Source: a virus (lineage: Duplodnaviria > Heunggongvirae > Uroviricota > Caudoviricetes). From it: a stretch of 64,000 nucleotides of DNA. The notes beneath the pieces were generated by a model. The model ran no database searches and was not told the DNA's origin. It was given only the letters and a program-made list of their open reading frames with translations. The stretch is from IMG/VR virus record IMGVR_UViG_3300021066_000001; one strand, written 5' to 3'. How positions within the stretch are numbered: the stretch's first letter is position 1; every line of letters starts with the position of its first letter. Both the position numbers and the translations under genes were made by a program. Below are positions 34,595-56,826 of the stretch, in pieces.

Positions 34595-34668
34595 TGGTGC
34601 CTCTGTCTGGAATCGAACCAGAGTTCCCGCTGTGTGGGAGCGGTGGTCTGCCATTGACGTACAGAGGC
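34595..34668 (-). tRNA. tRNA-Val(CAC), C33 variant
   Basis: cloverleaf, loop CC-CAC-AC, CCA. Confidence 0.75.
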
Positions 34669-34677
34669 GGTTACTTC

Positions 34678-35343
34678 TTAGACGTCTAGCTGGAGGAACT
34701 TGTTCTCCGTGAAGTCTAGACAGTCGATGCAATAAGACCCACCCTTGACTGGATCTTCCGCGAAGCGGATGTCACGCCCGCGGGTGTGACCGAACACTTG
34801 AGTCAACCCAGATACTGGTTGAAATTCCCGGCGAAAGTCGCACCAGAACATCCCGCCGACGAATTGTTTTCCGCCACGCACGACACCGATCCAGTGCATA
34901 GGTGACTTAAGATCATGCCACCACATCGTGAGGCGAGCTTGCAAGTCATCGGCTTGATCGAGATATCCAGCTTCCCAGATCTCATTGCTGAGCCCGGCGT
35001 GTGACACCAGAAATCGCGAGTTAAGCAGAATAAACGGCTCGAACTTCTGCATGAGCTTGGCCTCGTACTCCTTCATCATGTCGATCGACGCGTCTGTCTT
35101 CCCTGACGCCGCATGTGTATACGGCATGTAGTACGAGAGCTCGTGGTTACCGAAGATCGCGCGAGCCTTACCCTTCTCGATCGCGGCGAGGATGAGATCG
35201 TAACAGCGGCGATAATCTTCTACTCCTCGATCTCCGTACGAGTCGACGATGTCACCCACGAAGATCACCTGGCCGTCGTTGGCCAGGGCCGCTTCGACGG
35301 CCTCCCACTTTCCGTGGACATCTCCGACAAACGTGTACAGCAC
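34678..35343 (-). CDS. calcineurin-like metallophosphoesterase
   Basis: GDVHG, GDIVD, GNHE, SHAG, GHT; GTG start. Confidence 0.85.
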   Translation of the reverse strand: MLYTFVGDVHGKWEAVEAALANDGQVIFVGDIVDSYGDRGVEDYRRCYDLILAAIEKGKARAIFGNHELSYYMPYTHAASGKTDASIDMMKEYEAKLMQKFEPFILLNSRFLVSHAGLSNEIWEAGYLDQADDLQARLTMWWHDLKSPMHWIGVVRGGKQFVGGMFWCDFRREFQPVSGLTQVFGHTRGRDIRFAEDPVKGGSYCIDCLDFTENKFLQLDV

Positions 35344-35554
35344 GATCTGCTCCCTAGAAAAATGCAAGCTACCTGATACGCCCCAACTGGGTCCGGCGTG
35401 CGGCATCACGCGAGGCTTCAGGAGTAACTCCTTAGCTTGCGCGCGTCAACGTGACGCTCGACGCTAATTCCAGAGACGGCCGAAGCTAGATCAGGTCATC
35501 TAGCTCCGCTTGCGCTCCCGGTTACCCGGGAGGCATCATTCGATTTATGCGATT

Positions 35555-35953
35555 CTATTGGTTCAGGATCGCGTCGTATATTTCGCTGAAGCAACGGCCC
35601 TTGAACTTCCGGACGCCGTCGACACCGTCAACACGCACCAGAAAATTGCTGCCGCGTAGTCCGACGACCACCATCTTGCGGCCGTTGTAGGTGATCTGCT
35701 TGAGGAGGGCCTTGTCACCGCACTTCTTTTTGAGGTGGATGATCGATTCTGGCGCCACGCTCTCGAGCCGGGGATCTGCGACCGCGGATTCAACGATCAC
35801 CGCTAGCGGGCAAGAGAATGCCGACTCGCTGTACTTGATGTTACCGATGTTTGCCTTGATGCCGTACTTCGCCCCGACTGTGGCTAGCGCGGCGTTCATC
35901 TCTTGGCGAAGGAGTTGAAGATTGTGTTTGTCGAACTTGGTGATCTTTTCCAC
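35555..35953 (-). CDS. hypothetical protein
   Basis: GTG start after early promoter. Confidence 0.6.
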   Translation of the reverse strand: MEKITKFDKHNLQLLRQEMNAALATVGAKYGIKANIGNIKYSESAFSCPLAVIVESAVADPRLESVAPESIIHLKKKCGDKALLKQITYNGRKMVVVGLRGSNFLVRVDGVDGVRKFKGRCFSEIYDAILNQ

Positions 35954-36027
35954 GTTTCCCGCCTCCAGGACCGTTGAATATGAGACATTATATCTCAAAA
36001 TCACTCAAAAGAACACACACAATTACG

Positions 36028-36733
36028 TGGTAGGAGAACTCGGATTCGAACCGAGACCTGTCGGATTAACCTGTCGTCAGGCTTTCAACGAGATTCGTGA
36101 CGAACTTTTCGCGATCATCTCCAGAAAGCTGCTGGTACTTAGACCAGCGCACTCGAACAATCTTCCATCCTCGTCCCTCAAGAAAAGCATTTCGGCGCTG
36201 ATCAGAGGAAACAATCCTAGGATCGACGTAGTGTTGTTCTCCGTCAATCTCGAGGTCGATCTTGCGATCAAGGAATGCGAAGTCAAGCGTGTAGGTAGAT
36301 TCCTGAAACTGCTCGACGAACTCTAGACCGTATTTCTTCAGGAGCTCTCCCCAGTATCTCTCCGGGAAAGATCTACCCTTAGATTTATGATTGAGTTTGT
36401 ATGGCACCATCTCAGGATGGTCACGCAGATACCTGATCCGCCCCTCAGAGATCTTCCTGCGCACTCTAGAGACATGCTTCGATTTCTTCGGATCGTGCTC
36501 TCACGAAGCTTCTGCCTAGTCTCTTCCGACATTTTGTAGGTTGGATTGGACCAGGAATTCTTCCCGGGCACTCTATTAGGATTCTGCTTACACGACCGCT
36601 CATGCATGATGAGCGCTTGACGTTGCGATGTGGATCTATTGCAGTGCTGACACATGAGCATGACGTCTATTTTACATAGCGCATCAAGCTCATGAATAAG
36701 TCCGCTGTGCTCAACCGTTAACACCACTCTCCC
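36028..36733 (-). tRNA. split tRNA, probably Lys(UUU): 5' half 36698-36733, 3' half 36028-36069, 628-nt insert
   Basis: halves pair (GGGAGAG/UUCUCCU; CGGA/UCCG); joining CUU+UUAA gives CU-UUU-AA. Confidence 0.75.
36066..36661 (-). pseudogene. Zn-finger/NUMOD3/DUF559(Vsr-like) homing-type endonuclease, frameshifted near 36465
   Basis: CQHC..HERSC, MSEETRQKLRES, LDFAFLDRKIDLEIDGEQHY in two consecutive frames. Confidence 0.7.
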
Positions 36734-36848
36734 GTCGAGGTGTAGCGGGATGTTTTCGGAGGTGCGTCATGTTTGACTCCTAAGTGAGTAGCTGGCGTTC
36801 TAGGTTTAAACTACGTGCCGCGGTAACTCACGCGCGCCCGGCCGGGTC

Positions 36849-37088
36849 TTAACCGGCATCTCCAGCTTGTTCTTGCTTGGCCTTGTTGAGATAGTCGAGG
36901 TGCTTCCTGATGTACCGCATGAAGAGCAGCGCCTTGTCCTCCGCGAGGAAGACGGCGGTGCCGATCTCGTTGGGATCGGTGGGCACGGGAAACTCGAAGC
37001 CGCACTCCGTCTTGTACCAGAGCTGGCCCTCACGGTAAAAGGAGAACCGCACGAGCTTGTTGCCTGAGACCATGTCCTTGAGATTCAT
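36849..37088 (-). CDS. hypothetical protein
   Basis: ATG at 37088, between tRNAs. Confidence 0.65.
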   Translation of the reverse strand: MNLKDMVSGNKLVRFSFYREGQLWYKTECGFEFPVPTDPNEIGTAVFLAEDKALLFMRYIRKHLDYLNKAKQEQAGDAG

Positions 37089-37104
37089 TTGATGACTTTC
37101 TACG

Positions 37105-37178
37105 TGGTGCTCCAGCAGGGAATCGAACCCTGTTCTCATCCTTACCAAGGATGCATCTTACCAATGGACTACAAGAGC
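37105..37178 (-). tRNA. tRNA-Thr(GGT)
   Basis: cloverleaf, CCA. Confidence 0.9.
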
Positions 37179-37189
37179 GTTGTTGAGTT

Positions 37190-37264
37190 TGGTGCCCGAT
37201 GCCGGATTCGAACCGACTTCCGCTTCTTTACAAGAGAAGGCTTCACCGTCAAAGTTTATCGGGC
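37190..37264 (-). tRNA. tRNA-Thr(TGT)
   Basis: cloverleaf, CCA. Confidence 0.9.
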
Positions 37265-37581
37265 GGAGTCTTGACAACCTTTTGCATGAACCGCTGAAAG
37301 GCGCTTGGGTTCTTGACGTAGTCCAAGAGCATCTGGTGCATCGCGGTGTAGAGCGTCATCATCGGGCCGTTCTTGCCGCGGCTCCGCTGGTAGTCGTCGA
37401 TCTCGTCGACGAGCTCAGCGAGTGCCGCCTTCGGGTTGCCGTCATGCTTGTCGAGCAACTTGGCGACGAAGGTGTTGGCCTTGCTGGGATGTAGTGGAGC
37501 ACCGTACGTGTCGCGCTTGCGACGAGCTTGAATGCGACGCTCCTCGTCGTCCTCGTAGGAGAAGATCTCGTTGAGTCTCAC
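37249..37581 (-). CDS. protein with CTS-like N-terminus (MRLNEIF)
   Basis: late operon; 3' end overlaps tRNA-Thr. Confidence 0.6.
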   Translation of the reverse strand: MRLNEIFSYEDDEERRIQARRKRDTYGAPLHPSKANTFVAKLLDKHDGNPKAALAELVDEIDDYQRSRGKNGPMMTLYTAMHQMLLDYVKNPSAFQRFMQKVVKTPPDKL

Positions 37582-43674: not shown

Positions 43675-43878
43675 ATCTTGTCACCGCTCCGATCGAGGGG
43701 GAGTCGACTTCGACACCCATGCTAGACCGGCTACAGCGCCCTTTCTCAGTCATCCACCGCGCTTAAGGGTAAAACCGCGGCTTCATTTCAGCATCCAACC
43801 AGTACTTGGTTCCCCACGCCCTGATTCACCGGCGTTGTCGACTTCTAGGTGTTACATCGAGGTCATCGACTTAACCTC

Positions 43879-43954
43879 TGGCACGCCTGGAGGGGATCGA
43901 ACCCCCGACCTCCGCGTTCGTAGCGCGGCACTCTCTCCACTGAGCTACAGGCGC
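43879..43954 (-). tRNA. tRNA-Arg(ACG)
   Basis: canonical cloverleaf. Confidence 0.9.
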
Positions 43955-44235
43955 ATCGTGCTACAACTTCAACCGCTTGACTCCAAAACGAATGAGGGGT
44001 CCATCTCTGGACCCCTCGACCGGGTGCTGCCTTAGCGGAAGATCTCGTTAGTTTGAGCTTCCGCCTCCGATCGAGGAGCGCGTATCAGGATTGACGCACG
44101 GCTGCATCGTCTCTCGATGCTCGCCGGCGGCGGTCCTAATTTGCGCTGGTTTTGTAAAGGAGGTTCTCATTGTGCTGGTATTTATACCGGTGCTCAATTT
44201 TCCGAAAAGGTTAATCATGTGCAACTCGAAGAGCG

Positions 44236-44264
44236 ATGGTATCACAGTCTCCCTCGCTTGTAAA
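44236..44264 (-). promoter_or_regulatory. sigma70-like promoter TTTACA-N17-TACCAT for the tRNA array
   Basis: consensus spacing and TG extension. Confidence 0.75.
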
Positions 44265-44271
44265 CAACTTT

Positions 44272-44658
44272 GTGCAATTTGTTTTGGACCCTATCCGCTC
44301 CAGCTAGACGGCCGTCTATCTGGAGCCTCTTCACCTCGGTACCTCAGCGCGTAGTGGCGAACTGCGTACTGCACCAGCCGCGGATCCAAAACGAATTCCA
44401 CAGAGCGTTACGATCGGCCGCTATACCCAGTCCGCCCTGCGGGGTTCCCGGACTTGACCTCTGCCTCTCGGCGTCCACGGTCTCACCGGTTGGTCCCTGG
44501 CTCTTAACCGACAGGGTCTGGCGTTATACTGCGATCTCTTCCCCGGAGTCCACCCGGAGAACCTTCGTAACTGGGTTGCGTGGGAGGCTCGAACTGCTGT
44601 TCGACCCTTGTGGGGCCTGCCTAGTCCGACTTGAGCCTTGCGGACCTCCGTGCAACTT
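44272..44658 (-). ncRNA. candidate large structured ncRNA (about 390 nt)
   Basis: no credible ORF, own promoter, many helices. Confidence 0.5.
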
Positions 44659-44664
44659 GGAGTA

Positions 44665-44693
44665 ATTGTAATCGGAATCTAGTAGCTTGTAAA
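44665..44693 (-). promoter_or_regulatory. sigma70-like promoter TTTACA-N17-TACAAT
   Basis: near-consensus. Confidence 0.8.
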
Positions 44694-44715
44694 CACTGCC
44701 GTTAGTTCTTGTGAA

Positions 44716-44916
44716 CTACTCGACCGGGCGGCAGACGCTGACGGTGACTGGAATTTCCGCGTAGACCGGTACCGGCATTCGGCTGACATAAGGTACCGAG
44801 TACTGGGTGAGCCCGCCGACCGTCTTCGCGATGACGTGGCGCTGGGTGTCTTCAGGGCAGACCGAGGCGCATCCTGTGAGGCAGAGAGCGACGAGACTCA
44901 GCGCGACTCGTTGCAC
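44716..44916 (-). CDS. putative lipoprotein
   Basis: lipobox LTGC after hydrophobic stretch. Confidence 0.6.
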   Translation of the reverse strand: MQRVALSLVALCLTGCASVCPEDTQRHVIAKTVGGLTQYSVPYVSRMPVPVYAEIPVTVSVCRPVE

Positions 44917-45377
44917 GCGTCGAGAAACTTGAGGAAGTTCAGGTAGAGCGTCTCGTTGTCGATACCGAATCGACCGAAGGGTTTGTGAGCTTCGCTGTGT
45001 CGACGAACGATCGTGAAGGTGATCATCGAGGTCAGGACACGGCGGGCGAGCGCTCTGTCGGTGCTCTTGTAATTGCGATAGACGTACTCCATCGCCTCGA
45101 TGATCGCGTGGCCCTTGAGAATCTTCAGGGCGCCGCTAGAGTCATTGTTGGCGAGGATGAAACGGGGAATCGGCTGACGCAGGAGAAACGCTTGAAGCAC
45201 GCGCTTGTGCTGCGAGCCCGGGTAGTCGATCGGGGTGAAGTTGACCAGGTCGCGAGCGTAGTTGCGTGAGAAGAAGTCCCCGACCGTCATCTGAAGCTCG
45301 TCGATGTCGAGATACGCGAAGCTACAAGGCAGCGCGTCCTCGTGAAGAAGCTCATTCAGGTCAAAGACTTGCGCCAC
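44898..45377 (-). CDS. degenerate DUF262/ParB-like domain protein
   Basis: VLQAFLLRQPIPRFIL resembles the DUF262 PIP motif; DGQQR absent. Confidence 0.4.
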   Translation of the reverse strand: MAQVFDLNELLHEDALPCSFAYLDIDELQMTVGDFFSRNYARDLVNFTPIDYPGSQHKRVLQAFLLRQPIPRFILANNDSSGALKILKGHAIIEAMEYVYRNYKSTDRALARRVLTSMITFTIVRRHSEAHKPFGRFGIDNETLYLNFLKFLDACNESR

Positions 45378-45439
45378 GTTCGCCTCCGAAGTAGCAATAG
45401 AGGCATTTTAACTCAAAATCACTCAAAAGTAAATGAAAT

Positions 45440-46009
45440 TTAGAGCTTTAACGCTTTCTTGAACTGCTTGAGGGACTCCAGGTCACGCTTGTACTGATGA
45501 AGGTCGTACCCGTACATCGAGTAGCGCTCCCACGGCGCGTACCACTTCAGCTTGCGAGCTTCCTCGGCGAGCTTTCGCAGCTCGTCGATCTGCTTCTGAA
45601 GAACTTGAATGAGCTTCTCGTGGTTCTCACTGAAGTACCTCTTGGCGAGCTCAAACTCTTCCTTGGTCTCGCCGGTCGCCGAGTTATCGTACTCCTCGCC
45701 GTCTCTGATCCACTCGAGGCGATGCATGTTGCTGACGATCGCGTCGGTGATCTGGAAGCCACCGACGCGATCTTTGAAGAGCGGACGCACCTTCATGAGC
45801 TCGGCCTTTCCGAACTCCTTGTTCGGAATCTCCTTGATTCGCTTGAGCTCGTCTGAGAGCCAGTTCTCCTGGTCCTTTTGCTGCTTGAAAGCGCGAGGCA
45901 AGTCGTCGGCAATCTTGCTGAGCTTGTCACGAAATTCTGACCTGACCTTCTTGGTAAGCTTGTCCTCGATGTTGATGACCTCGCCCTCGACGAGCTCGAT
46001 GATCTTCAT
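45440..46009 (-). CDS. protein with CTS-like N-terminus (MKIIELVE)
   Basis: late operon. Confidence 0.7.
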   Translation of the reverse strand: MKIIELVEGEVINIEDKLTKKVRSEFRDKLSKIADDLPRAFKQQKDQENWLSDELKRIKEIPNKEFGKAELMKVRPLFKDRVGGFQITDAIVSNMHRLEWIRDGEEYDNSATGETKEEFELAKRYFSENHEKLIQVLQKQIDELRKLAEEARKLKWYAPWERYSMYGYDLHQYKRDLESLKQFKKALKL

Positions 46010-46563
46010 GCCCAGCTCACTCCTGCGTCGTGCTTCTGAGCGAAGTCGATGAGCTTGAGCAAGTCGTCGATCAGCTCGCCGTACTGTGCGGCGGTTCGTC
46101 CGTAACTGATCATGCGAGGGCCGCGCTCGATCGTCGCTACGTTTCCGTCATGCTTGACCCCGCGGACGCGCTGCTCATCGCTCGGTGGCGTCTCATGGTG
46201 CTTTAGGTCGCCGTTCTTCATCCGAATGAGCCTCCGTCGGAGCTCAGGGAGCTCCGAGTTATCCCACCCGCCGACTAAGCTCTCGTCGCCGTTGACCTTC
46301 TCACCGATCGCGCTCAAGAAGGCGAGCGCGCCCGAGTTTGAGAGCTGAATCTTGTCGTAGTCGGTCACCCAAACCTTCTCCTTTCCCGTTCCCTTGCACA
46401 TCCAGCAGTGCTCGGACTTGCCGTGGTAGTGGCACTCACGACAGTCGATCTCCTTCTCCTTCTCGAACGGAGTGAAGTCATGCGAGCGCTGCCCGTCCTT
46501 CTCTACGCGATGGATCGTCGCGCCGAAGGTGACCGACTCAGCGAGAAAAGCTTTGAACTTCAA
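46006..46563 (-). CDS. protein with CTS-like N-terminus (MKFKAFLAE) and CxxCxGxG zinc motif
   Basis: late operon. Confidence 0.7.
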   Translation of the reverse strand: MKFKAFLAESVTFGATIHRVEKDGQRSHDFTPFEKEKEIDCRECHYHGKSEHCWMCKGTGKEKVWVTDYDKIQLSNSGALAFLSAIGEKVNGDESLVGGWDNSELPELRRRLIRMKNGDLKHHETPPSDEQRVRGVKHDGNVATIERGPRMISYGRTAAQYGELIDDLLKLIDFAQKHDAGVSWA

Positions 46564-46564
46564 C

Positions 46565-47071
46565 TTAGTACGTTCCGATCAAGCGCTTCGGGTTAATCGG
46601 ATCACGATAGATGATGATCTTCACCATCTCTTCGACGTGATCGGCGTCGGTCTCGATCCCAGCTTCCTTCGCGTCGTAGTAGACGAAGAGGTCATACTTG
46701 ACGGCTGCGACCTTGCGCTTCGGCATGTCGCTGTCACTCTTGAACTTATACTTCCGCTTCGCTTCAGGGACCCCGATGTGCTCAGGATCGTACGTGACCT
46801 CCTTGACGAAGGATTGCCCTCGCGTGGCCTCCTCGATCTCGGCGCCGATGTCATTACCTCCGTTCTTGCACGCCTTCTTGATCTCCGAGACGTCCAGCTC
46901 AGGAATCGGTTGGAGCCACTTCTGCTCGTTGCTCGCGCTCTTCTTGGGAGCAGATTCCTTTTCCTCCTCACGCTTCCGCTCTTCAGGTGAGATCGTGCGA
47001 GTCAGTACCCCCTTGCGAGTCGGGTGCTTTGTCCACTTCGGGGCTTCGGTCAAGACAGTCTTAAGCTTCAT
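46565..47071 (-). CDS. protein with CTS-like N-terminus (MKLKTVLTE)
   Basis: late operon. Confidence 0.7.
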   Translation of the reverse strand: MKLKTVLTEAPKWTKHPTRKGVLTRTISPEERKREEEKESAPKKSASNEQKWLQPIPELDVSEIKKACKNGGNDIGAEIEEATRGQSFVKEVTYDPEHIGVPEAKRKYKFKSDSDMPKRKVAAVKYDLFVYYDAKEAGIETDADHVEEMVKIIIYRDPINPKRLIGTY

Positions 47072-48498
47072 GAGGTCCTCTTCATCATCGAGCGTACGGT
47101 GCGGTAGATCTCCTCCATCCCCTCGTTGCCGTGCTTCAGGAGAAGCTCGCGTTTTCTGAGCATGCTGACGAAATCGGTGTAGGAGGAGGCTTGCGTCGCC
47201 GCGTTCATGACGGCGTTCATGTGAAAGCTAGGTACCTTCAGTCTAGTGAGCTCTGCCTGAAGATCTCCCAACCTTCCCTCTGAGAACATGTCTGGCTGCG
47301 GGCCCTCGCCGCCCATCTTGTGCTTCACCGCGTGACGCTTTGGCTTCTCCTCGACGGTGTAGTAGACGAGGTCAGGCTCACCGTCCGCGATGAACTGCTT
47401 GACGATGACGATCGACTTGTCAAGCTGCCCCATCTTGCGGAAGCTGTGAGAGGATGACTCAAAGTTCTTGTCGTCCTTCTTCTTGACCCACTCGACGTAC
47501 TCAGGCTCCTTGCGGTCCGAGAACTTCGCGACCTCGTACTCCTCATAGCCTCCTGCACGTCGCACCGTGTAGTAGCTGTCGAAGCCGGGATGACCCTCGT
47601 TGAGAAGATAAGGCCGTCCGTCGATGCGAAGCCCCAAGATCTTCTTGTCGTAAGTTTGATTCAAAGTCGCAGGTACTAGGTCGTTAGGTGCGATTCCTGC
47701 TTCGCGAGCTTCTTTGTTCGTGATGTTGTTCCACTTTAAGAAGCCACCCTTCTTAAAGAGCTTCTTGATCTCAGTCTTACTCTCTGTCACGGTAGAGAGC
47801 GGCACGAATGACTTAGCCTTCATGCTGATCGTGTCAACGGCGTTCCGGATCGAGTAGAAGGTGACACGCTCGTCGCCCTTGTGCTTTTCGTGCTCCTGCG
47901 CAGGCTCCTTCTTGGCTAGCACGAGGTCCCCCCTCTCGGCGGCTGGGTAACCCTTCGTCTTGACGCGGTGGTTGCACCGCATCACGCGCCAGTCCTTGCC
48001 CTTCCACTTGCCGTGAAACTGGGGGTAGGCCTTGTTATCGTCCTCGGCGATCTTGATGATCGCCTCCTTGATGTTGAGCTCGGAGGTGCCTTGCTTGCTC
48101 AGCTCGTTGATCTCTGCCTGGCGAGCGGAGCGTCGCTGGTACTCTTGAGCAAAGTTGGTGCGCGCCGACCCCGTTCGCTTAGTAACCTCAGCTTTGATCT
48201 CCTGCTTGACTGGATCTTCCGGCTTGGGTGAAGGTGGGGTGTCGGCTTCAGCTAGTCCCTTGCTCTTTGAATGCTCTCTCACGCGCTCAACGAACTTGTC
48301 CTTGTCGTCGGGGTGGATCGACCAGCTGTGATAGTCGGCGGGGTCGCCGTTCACCCGCAGGTCCTTGACGATCTCGGGCATCTCGAAGTATCGAGCGAAG
48401 TACTGATTTTGTTGACCAAAGATCGTCCGGCCGATCTCGCCGATCTCGATCCACCCCTCGGGGGTAGTCTTGCGCCGGTAAACCTCGGTGATCCTCAT
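47068..48498 (-). CDS. multi-domain protein with CTS-like N-terminus (MRITEV)
   Basis: 476-aa ORF with internal xxE motifs (LAE, VTE, FSE). Confidence 0.7.
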   Translation of the reverse strand: MRITEVYRRKTTPEGWIEIGEIGRTIFGQQNQYFARYFEMPEIVKDLRVNGDPADYHSWSIHPDDKDKFVERVREHSKSKGLAEADTPPSPKPEDPVKQEIKAEVTKRTGSARTNFAQEYQRRSARQAEINELSKQGTSELNIKEAIIKIAEDDNKAYPQFHGKWKGKDWRVMRCNHRVKTKGYPAAERGDLVLAKKEPAQEHEKHKGDERVTFYSIRNAVDTISMKAKSFVPLSTVTESKTEIKKLFKKGGFLKWNNITNKEAREAGIAPNDLVPATLNQTYDKKILGLRIDGRPYLLNEGHPGFDSYYTVRRAGGYEEYEVAKFSDRKEPEYVEWVKKKDDKNFESSSHSFRKMGQLDKSIVIVKQFIADGEPDLVYYTVEEKPKRHAVKHKMGGEGPQPDMFSEGRLGDLQAELTRLKVPSFHMNAVMNAATQASSYTDFVSMLRKRELLLKHGNEGMEEIYRTVRSMMKRTS

Positions 48499-48902
48499 CC
48501 CTCGACCGCGATCTCAAAGAAGATGTCGTCGTTGAGCGCTTGAGCTTGCTTGAGAGCTTCCTTGATCTGCGCGAAGGTACCTAGCTCAACCTTGATCTCA
48601 CCGTCCGACAGGTCGACGTAGGAGATCTTCTTTCCTGACCTGAGCGCCGCGAAGAAGATCTTGTTCTTGTGGCCCTCCTCCTCGCAGACGGTGAGGAAGG
48701 CCCGGTCACCCGAGATGAATCGACTGAAGGCTTTGCTAGCCTCATGCGACTCGGAGCTTCCAACGGTCAAGAAGCTGTCGATCTCCTCTGTGATCGCGGT
48801 CCCTAGAGACCCTAGGATCTCGTCGAGACGATCGTCACCTAGACCGTTGGTGCTCTTAAAGAACCGCTGGATCATCGCGGCCTTAAGTTCGTTTAGCTTC
48901 AA
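48495..48902 (-). CDS. protein with CTS-like N-terminus (MKLNEL)
   Basis: TAAATA at 48933. Confidence 0.65.
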   Translation of the reverse strand: MKLNELKAAMIQRFFKSTNGLGDDRLDEILGSLGTAITEEIDSFLTVGSSESHEASKAFSRFISGDRAFLTVCEEEGHKNKIFFAALRSGKKISYVDLSDGEIKVELGTFAQIKEALKQAQALNDDIFFEIAVEG

Positions 48903-48994
48903 TTCACATCTCCGAGCTTTAGTTGGCCCTCTTATTTAACCTGGCCGCCGCTGGGAGATAGGAAAGTTAGGTCTGGTTGATGTCTCCGCTCACC

Positions 48995-49945
48995 TTATCG
49001 TCGCGAAATTGGATCATCTCGAGCTCGGAGATGCCCAGCTCGCGCATGACGCCATGCAAGACGCTGTAAGACGCTGTCATGCTTGTCACCTGTCACGCGG
49101 TTCTCGAGAAGCGCTTTAGCAACGGCACGAATCAGCGCGCGGTTTATTTCCGTCACCCCTTTGGCGGCAATCTCTGCGAGTCCTCGATTTTTCTCTTGAA
49201 GAGTTTCTGTGAAGTGACGCAAATCAGCGTTCGTCTTTAGCGCCGCGTTTCGCTCTACGATCGTTGCCTCGTGCTCCATCTCGACATGATCGATGTGAGC
49301 TTCGAGGCGCTGGTGCAAGTCGATGTAAGCGCGAATCCACTTGAGCTGGCGCTTCATCGTTTGCTGCACGGCCTGATACGCGTGATGTTGTTCGGGGAAG
49401 TGCTTCGACGCCTTCTTCAGCATCGGGAGGAAGATCGTCTCCGCCTCGTCGGCGTAGCTCTGCATCTTCTCGACGGTGAAGACGCCGATCATCGTCTGAA
49501 GATTGTTGACTCGGTCAAGCCCCTTGACGATCGAACCAGTCGCGTCAAGTGAGAGATCGATGATGTAAGCTTCTCTGTCCTTGACCGTGAGCGTGCCGTC
49601 GGTCTCGACAAACTTCTTGGTCATCTTCCAGTTGACGGAGGCGACATCGTCGCCAAACTCGCGGCGGATCGCCTCGGTCGGAACGCGGTGATCCTCCTGA
49701 ACGTCATGGAGGAGAGCGATGACGATCGCGAGCTCCTCGTTGATGAGCCCCTTGAGATCGAGAACCGAGAGAGCGATCTGAACCTGGTGATGAAACTCCG
49801 GGGTCTGCTTGTCCTTCCTGAGTCCGGTGTGGTGTCGCTCTGAGAAGCCGAGAGCCTTGAGCCCGAGGGAGTATCCTCTCCCCAACATGTAGGCCTTGAG
49901 AAAGGTCCGATCCTTCTGAAATTGAAGGTTGTAGGAATTGCTCAT
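48995..49945 (-). CDS. RelA/SpoT-type HD hydrolase (Mesh1-like) with coiled-coil tail
   Basis: H.G..RK...PEFHH, ALLHDVQED, VKGLDRVNNL. Confidence 0.75.
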   Translation of the reverse strand: MSNSYNLQFQKDRTFLKAYMLGRGYSLGLKALGFSERHHTGLRKDKQTPEFHHQVQIALSVLDLKGLINEELAIVIALLHDVQEDHRVPTEAIRREFGDDVASVNWKMTKKFVETDGTLTVKDREAYIIDLSLDATGSIVKGLDRVNNLQTMIGVFTVEKMQSYADEAETIFLPMLKKASKHFPEQHHAYQAVQQTMKRQLKWIRAYIDLHQRLEAHIDHVEMEHEATIVERNAALKTNADLRHFTETLQEKNRGLAEIAAKGVTEINRALIRAVAKALLENRVTGDKHDSVLQRLAWRHARAGHLRARDDPISRR

Positions 49946-50023
49946 GAGAAATTATATCATGAGAGACGCGAGAGGTAAACCGCGGGCTTCGGGGAGGCTC
50001 GCGAGCCTCCCCGAAAGCTTTCG

Positions 50024-50767
50024 TTACTTGTCGGCCTTCTTCGTCGTTACGGTTGTGGTCGTGATCTCCTTCTTGATCGTCTCGTACATCGCTTGGGTGT
50101 CTACCGCGCCGGCGGCGTAGAAGACTCCACCGATGTTCTGGTCGATTCCGCGGTAGGACGAGGCCGTCGCCGACATCGTCTTGATCGCGTCGGACATGCC
50201 CTTGGCGCCGACGTCGAACGCGGCGACGTTCTGGAGCTTGATGCCCATGTCGATCGCGGTTTGGCGCGCACCCATCTGTGACCCGAGGTAGAGCACCTCC
50301 CAGTCATCTGCGCAGGGCTCGCTCGGGTTGCCCTGGCACTCCTTGAGCATCGCCGTGATGCGCTCGAACGAGAAGCGATAGCTCTTGTTCTCCTCGCCGT
50401 CGGTCAGGATCGCGAGGATCGTCTTGACGCCCTTCGGCTTGAGGTCACCGCAGCTCGTGATCGCATCGCCGACCGCGTCGTAGAGCGCCGTCCATCCGTT
50501 TGGGGTGAACGTCGTGTGATCGAGCGGTTGGACGTGCTCGATCGGAACGTTCGAGAAGACCATCTTTGGGGCCGAGCTGAACTTGACTAGGGTCATCGTC
50601 GCCTTCCCCTTGATCTTCTTTTGCTCCTCGAGGAAGGTGTTGAAACCTGCGATCGTCTCGTTGCGAACCGATCCCATCGAGGTCGACTCGTCGAGAACGA
50701 AGAGGATGCGAGTGAGCTTAGGAGTTTTGGTCTTCTTGACCGGCTTGATGTTTATGCGCTTTGGCAT
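50024..50767 (-). CDS. von Willebrand factor A domain protein
   Basis: MIDAS LDESTSM, TALYDA, ILTDGEEN. Confidence 0.85.
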   Translation of the reverse strand: MPKRINIKPVKKTKTPKLTRILFVLDESTSMGSVRNETIAGFNTFLEEQKKIKGKATMTLVKFSSAPKMVFSNVPIEHVQPLDHTTFTPNGWTALYDAVGDAITSCGDLKPKGVKTILAILTDGEENKSYRFSFERITAMLKECQGNPSEPCADDWEVLYLGSQMGARQTAIDMGIKLQNVAAFDVGAKGMSDAIKTMSATASSYRGIDQNIGGVFYAAGAVDTQAMYETIKKEITTTTVTTKKADK

Positions 50768-51116
50768 GGAATTTTTCACTTTCTTGTGTCTCGGCGTAGA
50801 GCTTTACGACGAGTAACTTCAACCTGCTCAAGATCTCGTCACGCGAGATCTTGTTGTACGAGCTGTCGATCAGAGCTTCCTCAACCCGTGAGGTGAGACC
50901 CTTGATCGTCCAACCTGCTTCTAGAGCGTCTTGCACGAAGTCTTGCCAGTCTAGAACGCAACCGCTCTCGTCAAGCTTGAAGAGCAGGATCGAGAGCGGC
51001 ACGCCGTGCTCGTTGACGAGCTTGAACATCCCGCCCATGACCTGCTTTCCCTCAGGAGTGTGTCCGGTCGCCCGGATTCCGAGGCGATCGCGTCGCCGCT
51101 GGCTTCGGCTTCCCAC
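50718..51116 (-). CDS. small protein resembling an AlaRS helical segment
   Basis: MFKLVNEHGVPL...LDWQDF resembles AFKLYDTYGFPL...VDxxGF. Confidence 0.4.
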   Translation of the reverse strand: MGSRSQRRRDRLGIRATGHTPEGKQVMGGMFKLVNEHGVPLSILLFKLDESGCVLDWQDFVQDALEAGWTIKGLTSRVEEALIDSSYNKISRDEILSRLKLLVVKLYAETQESEKFHAKAHKHQAGQEDQNS

Positions 51117-51943
51117 TAGACGATCTCGAGGCTAGTGCTGCATCGCGGACAAGATCTCCAGGACGACTTGCACTTCAAGCCGCACGAGGAGCACTTGGGC
51201 TTCGACTTGACCGTCAGCGGCTTCGTCACCTTGATCTTCGTCTCGGCGGACTCTCCGAGCAAGCGGAGCACCATGACGTGCTCTTGAGGATCGAGATTGA
51301 GAGAGCTGACGACTTGAAACTGCTGGTCAGAGACGCTTCCAGCCGCTGTGACTCCGACCGGATCTGGTTCTAGCGAGCACTGCGCGTCACCGTCGTAGAC
51401 AGTTGATGACTTCGACCGAAGCACGGAGTTAGAGGCGCTAGCGCTGTAAGAGCTCCCGCTTGATCCGAGACCTCCTGCGGTCCAAGAGCTTCTCCCGTTG
51501 TCGGTGGAGCGCCTGCCGTAGGGAGTGCCGCCGAGAGTCCAGCTGCTGCGTCGACGTTCAACCCATGGCCACGTGCTCGGGCGCACGTAGGGACGCTCGA
51601 ACTGGAACGTGACGCGGATCAGCCCGTCGTCGATGCTGACGCCGCGATGCCTCGCGACTGCCGCGGTGCGCTGGATGAACTTGAAGCGGTTTCCCTGGTT
51701 GAGGTTGCCGTTCTTGATGAAGCGCTCGAGGTCGAAGCTCTCGTTAGGGTCGATGATGAGCGCTACTCCCTCGGTCGCCTCCTTGCCGTCGATCTCAACC
51801 TTGACCGATGCCTTGGTCGTGTTGAGGTTCTTGACGCGGATGGCGTACTCTGAACCAAAGGGGAGGTAGACGGTGTCGCCGCGTTCGCGCAACACCTGGC
51901 CGTTATTGAGGATCGCCACGGCGAGCTTGTTGTTGTACATCAT
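51116..51943 (-). CDS. hypothetical protein with C-terminal double zinc ribbon
   Basis: CSSCG...CPRC. Confidence 0.7.
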   Translation of the reverse strand: MMYNNKLAVAILNNGQVLRERGDTVYLPFGSEYAIRVKNLNTTKASVKVEIDGKEATEGVALIIDPNESFDLERFIKNGNLNQGNRFKFIQRTAAVARHRGVSIDDGLIRVTFQFERPYVRPSTWPWVERRRSSWTLGGTPYGRRSTDNGRSSWTAGGLGSSGSSYSASASNSVLRSKSSTVYDGDAQCSLEPDPVGVTAAGSVSDQQFQVVSSLNLDPQEHVMVLRLLGESAETKIKVTKPLTVKSKPKCSSCGLKCKSSWRSCPRCSTSLEIV

Positions 51944-52019
51944 ACTGCTCCTTGAGGCTGACCGGCTAACAGCCTTTCTTCTTAAAGCCGGTTGGCGTAG
52001 ACCCGTTGCGGGCTTCTAC

Positions 52020-52122
52020 TGGTTGCGGGGGCAGGATTTGAACGCTGCCTTGTCTGGCTTATGAGGCCAGTGAGATGCGAACCTCAGAATTTCTTCCTAG
52101 TTCTCCACTTCTCGACCCCGCT
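52020..52122 (-). tRNA. initiator-like tRNA-Met(CAT) with helix inserted in the D loop
   Basis: 1:72 mismatch, loop CU-CAU-AA, about 27-nt GAAA-capped insert. Confidence 0.65.
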
Positions 52123-52196
52123 GGAGCGGAATGCGGGAATCGGACCCGCGTCTTGAGCTTGGGAAGCTCTCGTTCTAGCCACTGAACTAATTCCGC
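52122..52196 (-). tRNA. tRNA-Gly(CCC)
   Basis: cloverleaf, CCA. Confidence 0.9.
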
Positions 52197-52197
52197 T

Positions 52198-52254
52198 TGG
52201 TGCTAACGCAATCAAAGCGAGCATCATCCTGAGGTTCTCGGGTTGGGCGTTAGC
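52198..52254 (-). ncRNA. 57-nt CCA-ending minihelix
   Basis: 8-bp GCUAACGC/GCGUUAGC-A-CCA. Confidence 0.45.
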
Positions 52255-52324
52255 TCTTACCCCGACTTCTCAGCACCAGCTTTGAACCCTCTTTCGCCCC
52301 AAGCGTCTCCGCTCAGTGCGCGAT

Positions 52325-52400
52325 TGGTGGAGCCTAAGGGGATCGAACCCTTGACCTTATGCATGCCATGCATACGCTCTCCCAGCTGAGCTAAGGCCCC
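52325..52400 (-). tRNA. tRNA-Ala(GGC)
   Basis: canonical cloverleaf. Confidence 0.92.
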
Positions 52401-52455
52401 AACTTGATCGGAGTCTCACCGATCACTGTCCCGAGTACTAGTTACGGGACTAACG

Positions 52456-52531
52456 TGGTGGAGAAGAAGGGGATCGAACCCTCGACCTCAACGTTGCGAA
52501 CGTTGCGCTCTCCCAGCTGAGCTACTTCCCC
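52456..52531 (-). tRNA. tRNA-Ala(CGC)
   Basis: canonical cloverleaf. Confidence 0.92.
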
Positions 52532-52654
52532 AGACGCATCAGCAAAGCTCTTGAAACACAGAGGTCCGCGAAACCCCCAACCCTGTGATGCTTCTGCTGC
52601 GAGTTCAGGTTGAGCTAGCTCCGGAAACCGGCTTCGCGTTTGAACTCCAGCATC

Positions 52655-52730
52655 GGCGAGGTCGGATGGGTTTGAACCACCGTTTCTGGAGATTTTGGGG
52701 CCCCAGCGTCTTCACTTAGACGACAACCTC
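52655..52730 (-). tRNA. Trp-like tRNA with expanded anticodon arm
   Basis: CUGGGG-CCCCAAAAU-CUCCAG, G73. Confidence 0.55.
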
Positions 52731-52803
52731 GGAGCGGGTGAGGGGAATCGGACCCCCGTCTTCTGCTTGGAAGGCAGTTGCTCTACCATTGAGCTACACC
52801 CGC
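52731..52803 (-). tRNA. tRNA-Gly(TCC)
   Basis: cloverleaf. Confidence 0.9.
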
Positions 52804-52866
52804 ACTGCGTAGGTACCTTCAAATCCGCCGCCCCATGTGGGCGGTCGACCTTTTACAACTACCTAC

Positions 52867-52940
52867 TGGAGCGGGTGAAGGGAATCGAACCCTCGTCTCA
52901 ACCTTGGCAAGGTTGCATGCTACCATTGTACCACACCCGC
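52867..52940 (-). tRNA. tRNA-Gly(GCC)
   Basis: canonical cloverleaf. Confidence 0.92.
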
Positions 52941-53059
52941 AAAATGTCGGTTACAGCGTCCGACGGTCGTTTGTGCTTAGGTGGAGAAACGACTGATTTT
53001 TCAGATTGTGCTAGCGATCCACCGCTAGTTAGCTTTGCACCTCGGGGAAGGTGCTGAGC

Positions 53060-53137
53060 TGGTTGCGTGAGGTTGGATTCGAACCAACGACCTTTGGCTT
53101 ATGAGGCCAACGAGCTACCGGGCTGCTCCACTCCGCT
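53060..53137 (-). tRNA. initiator-like tRNA-Met(CAT)
   Basis: A1:A72 mismatch, A11-U24, loop CU-CAU-AA. Confidence 0.85.
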
Positions 53138-55220: not shown

Positions 55221-55964
55221 CTATTTCGGTAGCTCTAATTGCTCGCACAGGTAAGCGTGCAATCGCCTGGTGACCTTGGCCAGGTGTTTCCTCTTGATCT
55301 TGAACGAGGTGGACTCGAAGCCACCGAACATCTCGGCGTTCGCGTGGATCTCGGCCCAAGCCGTCAGGAGGAGCGTCGGCGCCAGCGGATGCTTGCAAAA
55401 CTCGGTGATCTCCTCGCCGCGACAAGTGTGCGCCCACATGTCGAGCTTGATGAGCTGCTCGGTCATGAGCAGCAATCCAGAGTCCTTAGTCGCGTCGAAC
55501 TCCCGATTCTCGATAAACAGCTCTCGGAACACCCGAGCCGATTCGGCGGCGTGGTTCGGAAAGTGCTTCTTCCCATCAGCGTCGATCGTTAGACAGTAGG
55601 GCTTGCCGCAATCATGGAAGATGTGGTACGTGCGCACGTCCTTGGGCGGGAGGGCCACCCGGTAGAGAACGGGAGTCTCGAGAAGTGACTCCTCGGGAAT
55701 GTCCCACTTGTAGACGGTCTTTCCTGTCTCGAGGTACTCGTAGAGGTCACGATAGCGGTTGGCCACGTCGAGGCCGTGCTGGTAGATCGAGAGGCCGCGG
55801 GCCTGCTCGCACGTCTTCATCTGCTCGATCAGCTGATCGAGGGAAACCTACGGCGGAACTTCACACTCACACGGTTGCATGTAGCACTCCTGGCAAAGGT
55901 TAGGGTTGCACTGCTTGCAGTAACCTAGAAAGTCGTCGTGAGGACAACGCGAGAAGTCACCCAT
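55221..55964 (-). CDS. Cys-rich leader fused through an in-frame TAG (55848-55850) to an HD-like domain
   Basis: 38 codons, TAG, then 9 open codons in frame with the 55221-55820 ORF; HDCGKP, HFPNHA, DMWAH. Confidence 0.65.
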
Positions 55965-56220
55965 GGCTCCCCCAGAAGTACCACTCGATGATGTCATCGA
56001 CGCCGTACGAGCACTCCTGGTGCTCGTACTCGTTGCAGCCCATGATGTAGCGGCTGAACTTAACGTTGACTAGCCCTCCGTCAAAGTCGACCTGTGAGGG
56101 CTCGCCCTCGAAGGGGCGATGCCAGACGTCAGCCGGCTTGTGCTCTCTCGCGTACGCCTTCACGATCTCCTTGAGCTCGCATGCGAGCTCAAAGCCGAAC
56201 TTGAGCTCCAGCTCGGTCAT
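55957..56220 (-). CDS. hypothetical protein
   Basis: SD AAGGAG before ATG 56220. Confidence 0.6.
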   Translation of the reverse strand: MTELELKFGFELACELKEIVKAYAREHKPADVWHRPFEGEPSQVDFDGGLVNVKFSRYIMGCNEYEHQECSYGVDDIIEWYFWGSHG

Positions 56221-56224
56221 CTCC

Positions 56225-56371
56225 TTACGCATCGAGCTTCTCCCTCTTGACCTCGTCGGCGAGCTCTCGCGCCCACTTGACGTAGTGATCACTGGTTTGG
56301 TCCGAGTCCTCCTCTCGCTGAGCTGCGTACTCGAGAAACTCGACGAGCTTATCCTTGAGCTGCTGGTTCAT
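56225..56371 (-). CDS. 48-aa hypothetical protein
   Basis: ATGA coupling with pth2-like gene. Confidence 0.5.
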   Translation of the reverse strand: MNQQLKDKLVEFLEYAAQREEDSDQTSDHYVKWARELADEVKREKLDA

Positions 56372-56706
56372 GACTTCCTCCAGAGGTTGAACTGCTTGAA
56401 GAGGTGACGCTGATCTTCCGGAATCGGTTGCGTCGCGAACGACGTGAGGCCCCAGTTCTTGTACGGCTCGTGGAACTCGTACGTCTTGAGCCCGTGAGAG
56501 CGCGTCAAGTCGAGAGCAGCTTCGAGCTCTTGCTTGTCCTTTGTGTCCAGGAAGATGATGCTGGGATGACCGTCGGGCGACGGGCCGTGCTTGATGCCGA
56601 GCTCGAGGAGAGCATGTCCGGCTTGGAGCGCCTGCTGGGCGATCGGGAGATCACCGCGGAGGAAGCAGTACGTCCAGTGCTTTTGTTCGGAAACCTAGGA
56701 CTTCAT
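56368..56706 (-). CDS. peptidyl-tRNA hydrolase 2-like protein with in-frame TAG at codon 4
   Basis: YCFLRGDLP..QQALQAGHA, IIFL, YEFHEP...GLTSFATQP; ATG AAG TCC TAG GTT TCC. Confidence 0.75.
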
Positions 56707-56826
56707 AACGTTCTCCACTTGGTTCGTTGAAAAATCGTCTCGATGGCTGGCGATCCCACCCGGGACCCCAGGATTCGCACTACGGTAGAAGATATTTAAT
56801 CACAGATCGCGCGAAAAGTAAACTAC

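Follow-up and report, generated by a model that had tools for sequence, protein, structure and literature searches.

A conserved early amber codon and the predicted suppressor-dependent gating of a Pth2-like gene in jumbo phages

A gene for a protein resembling peptidyl-tRNA hydrolase 2 (Pth2) lies at 56368-56716 on the minus strand of a 64,000-nucleotide stretch of DNA (the window) from the IMG/VR virus record IMGVR_UViG_3300021066_000001, a tailed phage of the Caudoviricetes. The gene carries an amber codon (TAG) at codon 4, and in all probability, as far as sequence comparison can tell, it is gated by read-through of this early stop by means of a suppressor tRNA with the anticodon CUA (tRNA-CUA) encoded by the phage itself. 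Comparison of homologous sequences and a structural model demonstrates that the gate is conserved, that its stop type covaries with the suppressor anticodon, that the parts of the system co-occur and that the protein has a Pth2 fold; actual read-through at the gate we infer from these regularities. The source phage genome is a 389,331-bp record with 57.8% G+C and 48 tRNAs. The features on which the argument turns are the following.

56713-56716, minus strand: Shine-Dalgarno (SD) sequence GGAG, read from the sequence, with a 6-nt spacer to the ATG.
56695-56706, minus strand: leader mini-open reading frame (mini-ORF) ATG AAG TCC TAG, with the ATG at 56706-56704, the amber gate at 56697-56695 and G as the +4 base.
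56368-56694, minus strand: body of the Pth2-fold protein (P0001), 108 codons and a TGA stop (56370-56368), with no start codon of its own before codon 62.
1448-1522, minus strand: tRNA with anticodon CUA, an amber suppressor found by ARAGORN and the sole suppressor among the tRNAs of the genome.

The codons following the TAG are GTT TCC GAA, and the frame remains open over all 108 codons to the TGA, in agreement with what the initial annotation had described from the SD sequence onwards. It had also stated that no other ATG, GTG or TTG precedes the first conserved strand of the protein. Indeed, the first such codon in frame is located 62 codons 3′ of the TAG, past the conserved R-x-D-L...Q-x-x-H-A block, and initiation there would leave only a 46-residue C-terminal piece. 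Since the body has no start codon of its own, read-through would be the sole route to a folded product, and the level of that product should therefore follow the suppressor tRNA relative to release factor 1 (RF1). The whole 389-kb genome was scanned for start codons at most 8 codons before a stop that is followed by an ORF of at least 60 codons without an early start, and the arrangement described here has the best coding score among the TAG cases. Because of this top score and its recurrence in 46 homologous loci, the early-stop arrangement is, on sequence grounds, not due to chance. The predicted fold of the 121-nt leader region was not better than that of shuffled sequence (z = 0.23), which gave no sign of an RNA read-through signal.

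Homologs were collected by tblastn, which found matches in 25 cultured or assembled jumbo-phage records, and by a scan of IMG/VR, which added 69 loci that were classified jointly with ten cultured-phage loci (L002-L011). Among these, 46 loci are gated, 43 by TAG, two by TGA and one by TAA; four close metagenomic relatives (62-82% identity) were counted apart. The gated architecture consists of a ribosome-binding site, a start codon, 0-5 sense codons (mostly 2) and the stop, and purine-rich boxes like GGAG precede the leader starts in the homologs. At all 46 gated loci the stop precedes the conserved Tyr of strand 1 by 5-9 codons, the intervening sequence being free of start codons, and ungated homologs start just 3-5 codons before this Tyr. 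The start codon directly abuts the TAG in three loci (L111, L133 and L134), and the last sense codon of the leader is not conserved. The early TAG is present in phages of Acinetobacter, Ralstonia, Yersinia, Serratia, Erwinia, Pectobacterium and Cronobacter, likewise in phages of Salmonella, Xanthomonas and Stenotrophomonas, and in many uncultured phages. When jumbo-phage loci were read at the DNA level, the gated design was found in 11 of 12, the twelfth, that of CM1, being a fused form (see below). Representative gates are as follows.

ME3: ATG ACT TAG ATT.
RsoM2USA: ATG TTG TAG ATT.
fHe-Yen9-03: ATG TCT CAC TAG ATT.
Serratia phage BF: ATG ACG CAC TAG AAT.
Arash: ATG CTG TAG AAC.
CBB and GAP32: ATG GCA CAA TAG AAT.
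Uncultured phage of 595 kb: ATG ACT CAC TAG GTT.
Three of the close metagenomic relatives, all with TAG gates: ATG TTG TAG GTT; ATG AAG TCG TAG ATT; ATG CAG ACG CAA TCG TAG ATT.
Fourth close metagenomic relative: a seven-codon leader ending in TGA GTG.
L104, a 33-kb IMG/VR contig fragment with the TAA gate: ATG TTG CCA CAC ACG TAA GTA.

The initial annotation, which had proposed looking for the early TAG in homologs, had named two grounds in advance on which its reading would have to be given up. That the TAG is a sequencing error or specific to this isolate is contradicted by its conservation in the 46 loci and the four close relatives, across phages of many host genera. That the protein begins at the GTT after the stop is implausible, because many homologs carry AAT, AAC, ACA or ACC (or CAC) at this codon. 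The context of the gate is biased as well. The base at +4 is A at 33 of the 46 gates, G at 11, C at two and T at none, so that a purine is present at 44 of 46, as compared with 41 of 74 ordinary terminal TAGs of the source genome; +4 purines are documented to favour amber suppression (PMC6266110, citing Bossi 1983). In a maximum-likelihood tree, three TGA forms are found at three separate positions within TAG-gated clades, and the starred branches force three changes. In most of the GenBank records examined, among them those of the cultured jumbo phages L001-L009 and L012, the Pth2-like gene is either unannotated or called from an internal ATG.

The phage tRNA-CUA on which the initial annotation had relied was recovered as a convincing tRNA gene. 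It scores 65.4 bits against the Rfam tRNA model (threshold 29), folds into a canonical cloverleaf with an encoded 3′ CCA, is preceded by a sigma-70-like promoter (see below) and has a 7-nt anticodon loop, CUCUAAA, with U33 and a purine at position 37. With a best identity of 73% to the other tRNAs of the source phage, it has no clear origin among them. Comparison of stop type with suppressor type was possible for the gated loci with a suppressor tRNA in the DNA examined, which was limited to 1.5 kb of flank for the nine cultured-phage loci L002-L010. It gave 27 pairs of TAG with CUA, two pairs of TGA with UCA and no mismatch; by our arithmetic, the chance of such a perfect match is 1 in 406. 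The tRNA-CUA is within ~3 kb in the 27 TAG-gated loci. The two TGA-gated loci have tRNA-UCA in place of tRNA-CUA: L126, with TGA in both of its gated genes, has two tRNA-UCA genes 1.1-1.3 kb upstream, and L138 has one, 3.8 kb downstream. All 48 of the 48 neighbouring suppressor tRNAs are on the strand of the Pth2-like gene, at distances from -2.7 to +4.1 kb. This covariation of stop and anticodon provides indirect support, of the kind known from genetics, for the decoding of the UAG gate by the tRNA-CUA.

Among complete cultured TAG-gated genomes, tRNA-CUA was found in all six that were checked (ME3, RsoM2USA, fHe-Yen9-03, Arash, CBB and CM1). According to ARAGORN, the first five have exactly one each, and CM1 has one predicted tRNA-UUA in addition. 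In the GenBank record of Arash, the tRNA-CUA is labeled as tRNA-Phe. The distant members L149-L172 are ungated and also have a tRNA-CUA at most ~100 nt downstream, and therefore the whole Pth2-like subfamily is tied to suppressor tRNAs. A tblastn search of Atu_ph07, a phage with tRNA-UCA, found no homolog of the Pth2-like subfamily.

The assignment to Pth2, made in the initial annotation from motifs, holds at the level of the fold. The AlphaFold2 (AF2) model of P0001 has a predicted local distance difference test score (pLDDT) of 95.9, with coil at residues 1-5 and a strand at 6-13. In a Foldseek search of the PDB, the top 13 matches were all members of the Pth2/Bit1 family with template modelling (TM) scores of 0.6-0.75 and probability 1.0, the best being 1q7s (Bit1), 1wn2, 2zv3, 3erj and 1xty (TM 0.72-0.75). 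At the level of sequence the relation is remote. For P0001 itself, Pfam offered no family even at E-values up to 1, and PHROGs returned only families of unknown function. An exhaustive HMMER search for the Pth2-like protein gave 663 cluster representatives, and 87 relatives were aligned, of which 43 matched PF01981 (PTH2) weakly (E up to 0.01, best 6.2e-8); the family profile found solved Pth2 chains in the PDB at 7.6e-6. The residues R13, D15, Q24, H27 and E76 are kept in the family, Q24 and H27 being invariant, and position 20 is variable (Q, H, W or E). In the case of Pth2 from S. solfataricus, the catalytic residues are reportedly held by a Gly-Lys insertion before the Q-x-x-H-A helix and by a DAGxT motif. 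The insertion is absent from the phage family: in HMMER alignments, the 'tg' and 'kg' of 24bt_A and 2zv3_A are insertions, and Gln occupies the place of the Lys that comes next. Instead of DAGxT the family has E-P-(D/Y)...G-x-T; in the alignments, DAGH-tqle of the Pth2 chains is matched by E-P-d-l and a gap. Judged from the model together with these alignments, the Pth2-like protein is a distinct, divergent phage subfamily of the Pth2 fold.

A second gene with an early in-frame stop is found two genes downstream of the Pth2-like gene.

55848-55997, minus strand: Cys-rich ORF of 49 codons (55997-55851), the leader of the second gated gene, closed by a TAG (55850-55848) after which GTT TCC follows as at the first gate.
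55221-55847, minus strand: HD-motif protein, a body of 208 codons (55847-55224) and its stop, in frame behind the TAG (phrog_14850, 1.9e-53).

The first ATG of this body is codon 10, and in the AF2 model (pLDDT 95.5 overall) helix 3-12 starts before it, with pLDDT of ~95 there. In 42 loci, homologs of the HD-motif gene follow the Pth2-like gene at a distance of 0-1.7 kb. Most of them are gated themselves, by an SD sequence, an ATG, 1-3 codons and a TAG, and the stop is of the same type as in the Pth2-like gene in most lineages. Thus the second-gene gate reads ATG AAC TCG TAG ATT in L101, ATG TTG TAG ATT in L103 and M-K-S-stop in RsoM2USA, and its stop is TGA in L126. In Rak2-like phages the HD-motif gene starts normally and contains a TAG farther in, near codon 47; in their GenBank records examined in detail (e.g., CBB), this partner gene is split into two coding sequences. 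In CM1 and L160, the Pth2-like and HD-motif genes form a single in-frame fusion downstream of one early TAG. The fold of the HD-motif protein resembles the C-terminal half of class II tRNA nucleotidyltransferase (3wfo-3wfs, TMq up to 0.61, probability 1.0), and a profile match of the family to tRNA nucleotidyltransferase has an E-value of 2.7e-4. The H...HD...D motifs are represented by the invariant H24, H78-D79 and D136; the score with PF01966 (HD) is 15.3 bits, below the cut-off of 22, and HD structures were found among weak Foldseek rows only. Complex prediction for the Pth2-like and HD-motif proteins returned a score of 0.00 and no answer.

Following these observations, a mechanism can be proposed for the gate. 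Ribosomes would load at GGAG and the ATG and make Met-Lys-Ser. At the UAG of codon 4, termination by RF1 would release the tripeptide, while insertion by tRNA-CUA would lead to the 112-residue protein, the level of which would track the active suppressor tRNA relative to RF1 in the infected cell. As the gate falls in the unstructured N-terminal tail, any inserted residue should be tolerated. The suppressor tRNA, the Pth2-like gene and the similarly gated HD-motif gene constitute a conserved three-part module. The two proteins would presumably act on tRNA 3′ ends, with either the suppressor itself or the pool of tRNAs under suppression as a possible target. Candidate purposes of the gate are feedback on the suppressor, the servicing of tRNAs while suppression is active, timing, and a defence against host attack on tRNA ends. 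A more specific proposal is that the module acts as a suppression homeostat, in which the Pth2-like esterase and its HD-motif partner, both produced solely by read-through, deacylate or otherwise inactivate the 3′ end of the suppressor tRNA; we regard this as conceivable, though doubtful. If true, the homeostat would keep read-through across the genome at a fixed level, as the prfB feedback does but by means of a tRNA, and would explain how standard-code jumbo phages afford a suppressor tRNA.

Several observations weigh against this picture of suppressor-dependent gating and its consequences. TAG terminates 74 of the 422 long ORFs (~17%) of the source genome and so is an ordinary terminator in this phage, and a strong suppressor should be costly for the same reason. 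The tRNA-CUA is 55 kb from the Pth2-like gene in the source genome, and not adjacent to it. Sixteen TAG-gated loci have no suppressor in the DNA examined, including the nine with only the short flank. In the TAA-gated L104 no ochre suppressor (tRNA-UUA) was found within its 33-kb fragment; the sole candidate there is a sub-threshold tRNA-like element with the loop CUAAUAA, 1.3 kb upstream. The lineages L127-129 have lost the gate but retain two tRNA-CUA genes. Moreover, the suppressors of different phages differ in their acceptor stems and discriminator bases, and owing to this diversity no single inserted amino acid can be deduced. Finally, the esterase activity of the Pth2-like protein is putative, because the Gly-Lys insertion and DAGxT are absent.

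The same arrangement could be explained without read-through if the three-codon leader were an ordinary upstream mini-ORF, after which ribosomes restart at or near the next codon without the help of a suppressor, so that the stop only tunes translation. The codon after the stop is GTT in the window and ATT, a rare start codon, in many relatives; TGA is followed by GTG in L138 and L100, and a near-invariant Met is present ~9 codons past the stop in the second gene. Nevertheless, none of the alternative codons found at this position in many homologs (AAT, AAC, ACA, ACC or CAC) is a start codon, and in those members of the second gene's family that have a normal start, translation includes the stretch preceding the conserved Met. 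Re-initiation would also leave unexplained the near-constant TAG, the switch to TGA exactly where the tRNA is UCA and the +4 purine bias, and we consider it improbable. A related possibility is that the leader is a minigene like those of lambda bar, shedding short peptidyl-tRNA or titrating RF1, with the downstream frame expressed rarely or incidentally. In its favour are the very short leader with its good SD sequence, the peptidyl-tRNA-hydrolase fold of the downstream protein, and the established toxicity of the lambda bar minigenes in cells in which Pth is limiting. A specific drop-off minigene is, however, argued against by the lack of conservation of both leader length, which varies from 0 to 5 sense codons down to the start-stop forms, and the last sense codon, and the downstream frame is clearly conserved as protein, with its invariant Q and H. 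This explanation is accordingly given very little credence.

General recoding, in which TAG is read as sense in many (for example, late) genes as in code-15 phages, would account for a tRNA-CUA encoded by the phage, and TAG is somewhat enriched at in-frame ORF junctions across a single stop (10 of 28, as compared with 74 of 422 terminal stops). It is highly improbable in view of the number of long ORFs that end in TAG, the ORFs being unfragmented under the standard code. As for the marks of code 15, TAG is neither avoided as terminator nor supported in frame outside the genes of the module; the other TAG junctions of the genome showed no family evidence of continuity beyond the two module genes. 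Furthermore, no downstream read-through targets were seen in XacN1 by its authors (PMC5852040). The omission or truncation of the gene in public annotations might be taken as a sign of a pseudogene or of a sequencing error at the TAG. This is hardly credible, as the early stop is kept in deeply diverged homologs (30-50% identity) whose body is intact and conserved.

Suppressor-dependent gating can be placed among several known systems. The gene for release factor 2, prfB, also has an early in-frame stop, and its output is set by termination versus alternative decoding; prfB, however, uses +1 frameshifting and senses its own product, whereas the phage gate would use a dedicated suppressor tRNA in the same frame. 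Phages with code 15 (TAG to Gln) or code 4 (TGA to Trp) encode suppressor tRNAs for which a role as timing device was proposed in a preprint by Borges et al., in which neither a hydrolase nor Pth is mentioned (bioRxiv 10.1101/2021.08.26.457843). In both cases, a phage suppressor tRNA would be needed for phage genes with in-frame stops, but in recoded phages a large number of genes is affected, frequently those of the late phase and of lysis, while the source phage gates a small module at the starts of its ORFs. With archaeal and eukaryotic Pth2 (PF01981; 1q7s, 2zv3, 3erj, 1xty), the phage protein shares the alpha/beta fold and the N-terminal R-x-D-L...Q-x-x-H-A block; it differs in having no Pfam match, Gly-Lys insertion or DAGxT, and in belonging to a suppressor-linked subfamily. 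The bar minigenes resemble the leader in being very short ORFs with a good ribosome-binding site and a topical link to peptidyl-tRNA hydrolase; bar is a case of peptidyl-tRNA drop-off with no downstream in-frame gene, whereas the downstream frame in the phages is conserved. Synthetic amber gates, as in a feed-forward loop with suppressor tRNA (PMC7969014), likewise make expression from an early amber conditional on a co-expressed suppressor tRNA; these were engineered, and the phage gate would be their natural and widely conserved counterpart.

A further known case is that of the orphan suppressor tRNAs in XacN1, RsoM2USA and Atu_ph07, jumbo phages that, like the source phage, keep the standard code and encode one or two tRNAs with the anticodon CUA or UCA. 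The targets of the tRNA-CUA genes were not identifiable to the authors of XacN1, who looked downstream of annotated stops and not at a stop just past the start (PMC5852040); those of RsoM2USA (PMC8504454) and Atu_ph07 (PMC6102473) speculated and named no targets. RsoM2USA itself carries the gated gene. Suppressor tRNAs recur in standard-code jumbo phages, and the gated module would be the first conserved target for them, a target invisible to standard annotation: in the GenBank records that were examined, the gene is either absent or cut short. In the literature searched on suppressor tRNAs, peptidyl-tRNA hydrolase and phages, no description of the gate was found. The module would link two enzymes with tRNA-related folds to suppression, and it is directly testable in cultured phages.

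Promoter-like elements were compared between the Pth2-like gene and the tRNA-CUA.

56794-56808, minus strand: promoter-like box GATCTGTGAT, overlapping an extended -10-like TTAAAT, ~90 nt upstream of the ATG.
1538-1566, minus strand: sigma-70-like promoter of the tRNA-CUA, with TAGAAA, a 17-nt spacer and TATAAT with TG, which includes the spacer box GATCTGTGA.

The pattern TCTGTGAT[AT][AT]A[AT] has two copies in the 389-kb genome, one upstream of the Pth2-like gene and one in the tRNA-CUA promoter, and direct comparison revealed that the shared box abuts the -10 element at both sites. A consensus promoter scan listed no promoter upstream of the Pth2-like gene. The shared box hints at co-regulation of the Pth2-like gene and the tRNA-CUA.

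Two further TAG junctions of the genome, both outside the window, were considered as read-through candidates and rejected. At genome position 148990 (L193), a single TAG-G separates an ORF of 285 codons from one of 509 codons in the same frame, and there is no family evidence for joining them. At position 237312 (L194), read-through is only possible, and again family evidence of continuity was not found. There, the ORF of a head maturation protease (phrog_207) ends in TAG-A, in frame with an ORF of 136 codons, and a GTG two codons past the TAG could serve as an ordinary start. As for the tRNA complement of the window, ARAGORN found 41 tRNA genes, including the one with anticodon CUA; the other 40 are on the same strand (minus) in two blocks within 34595-53133, and the tRNA-CUA stands apart from them under its own promoter.
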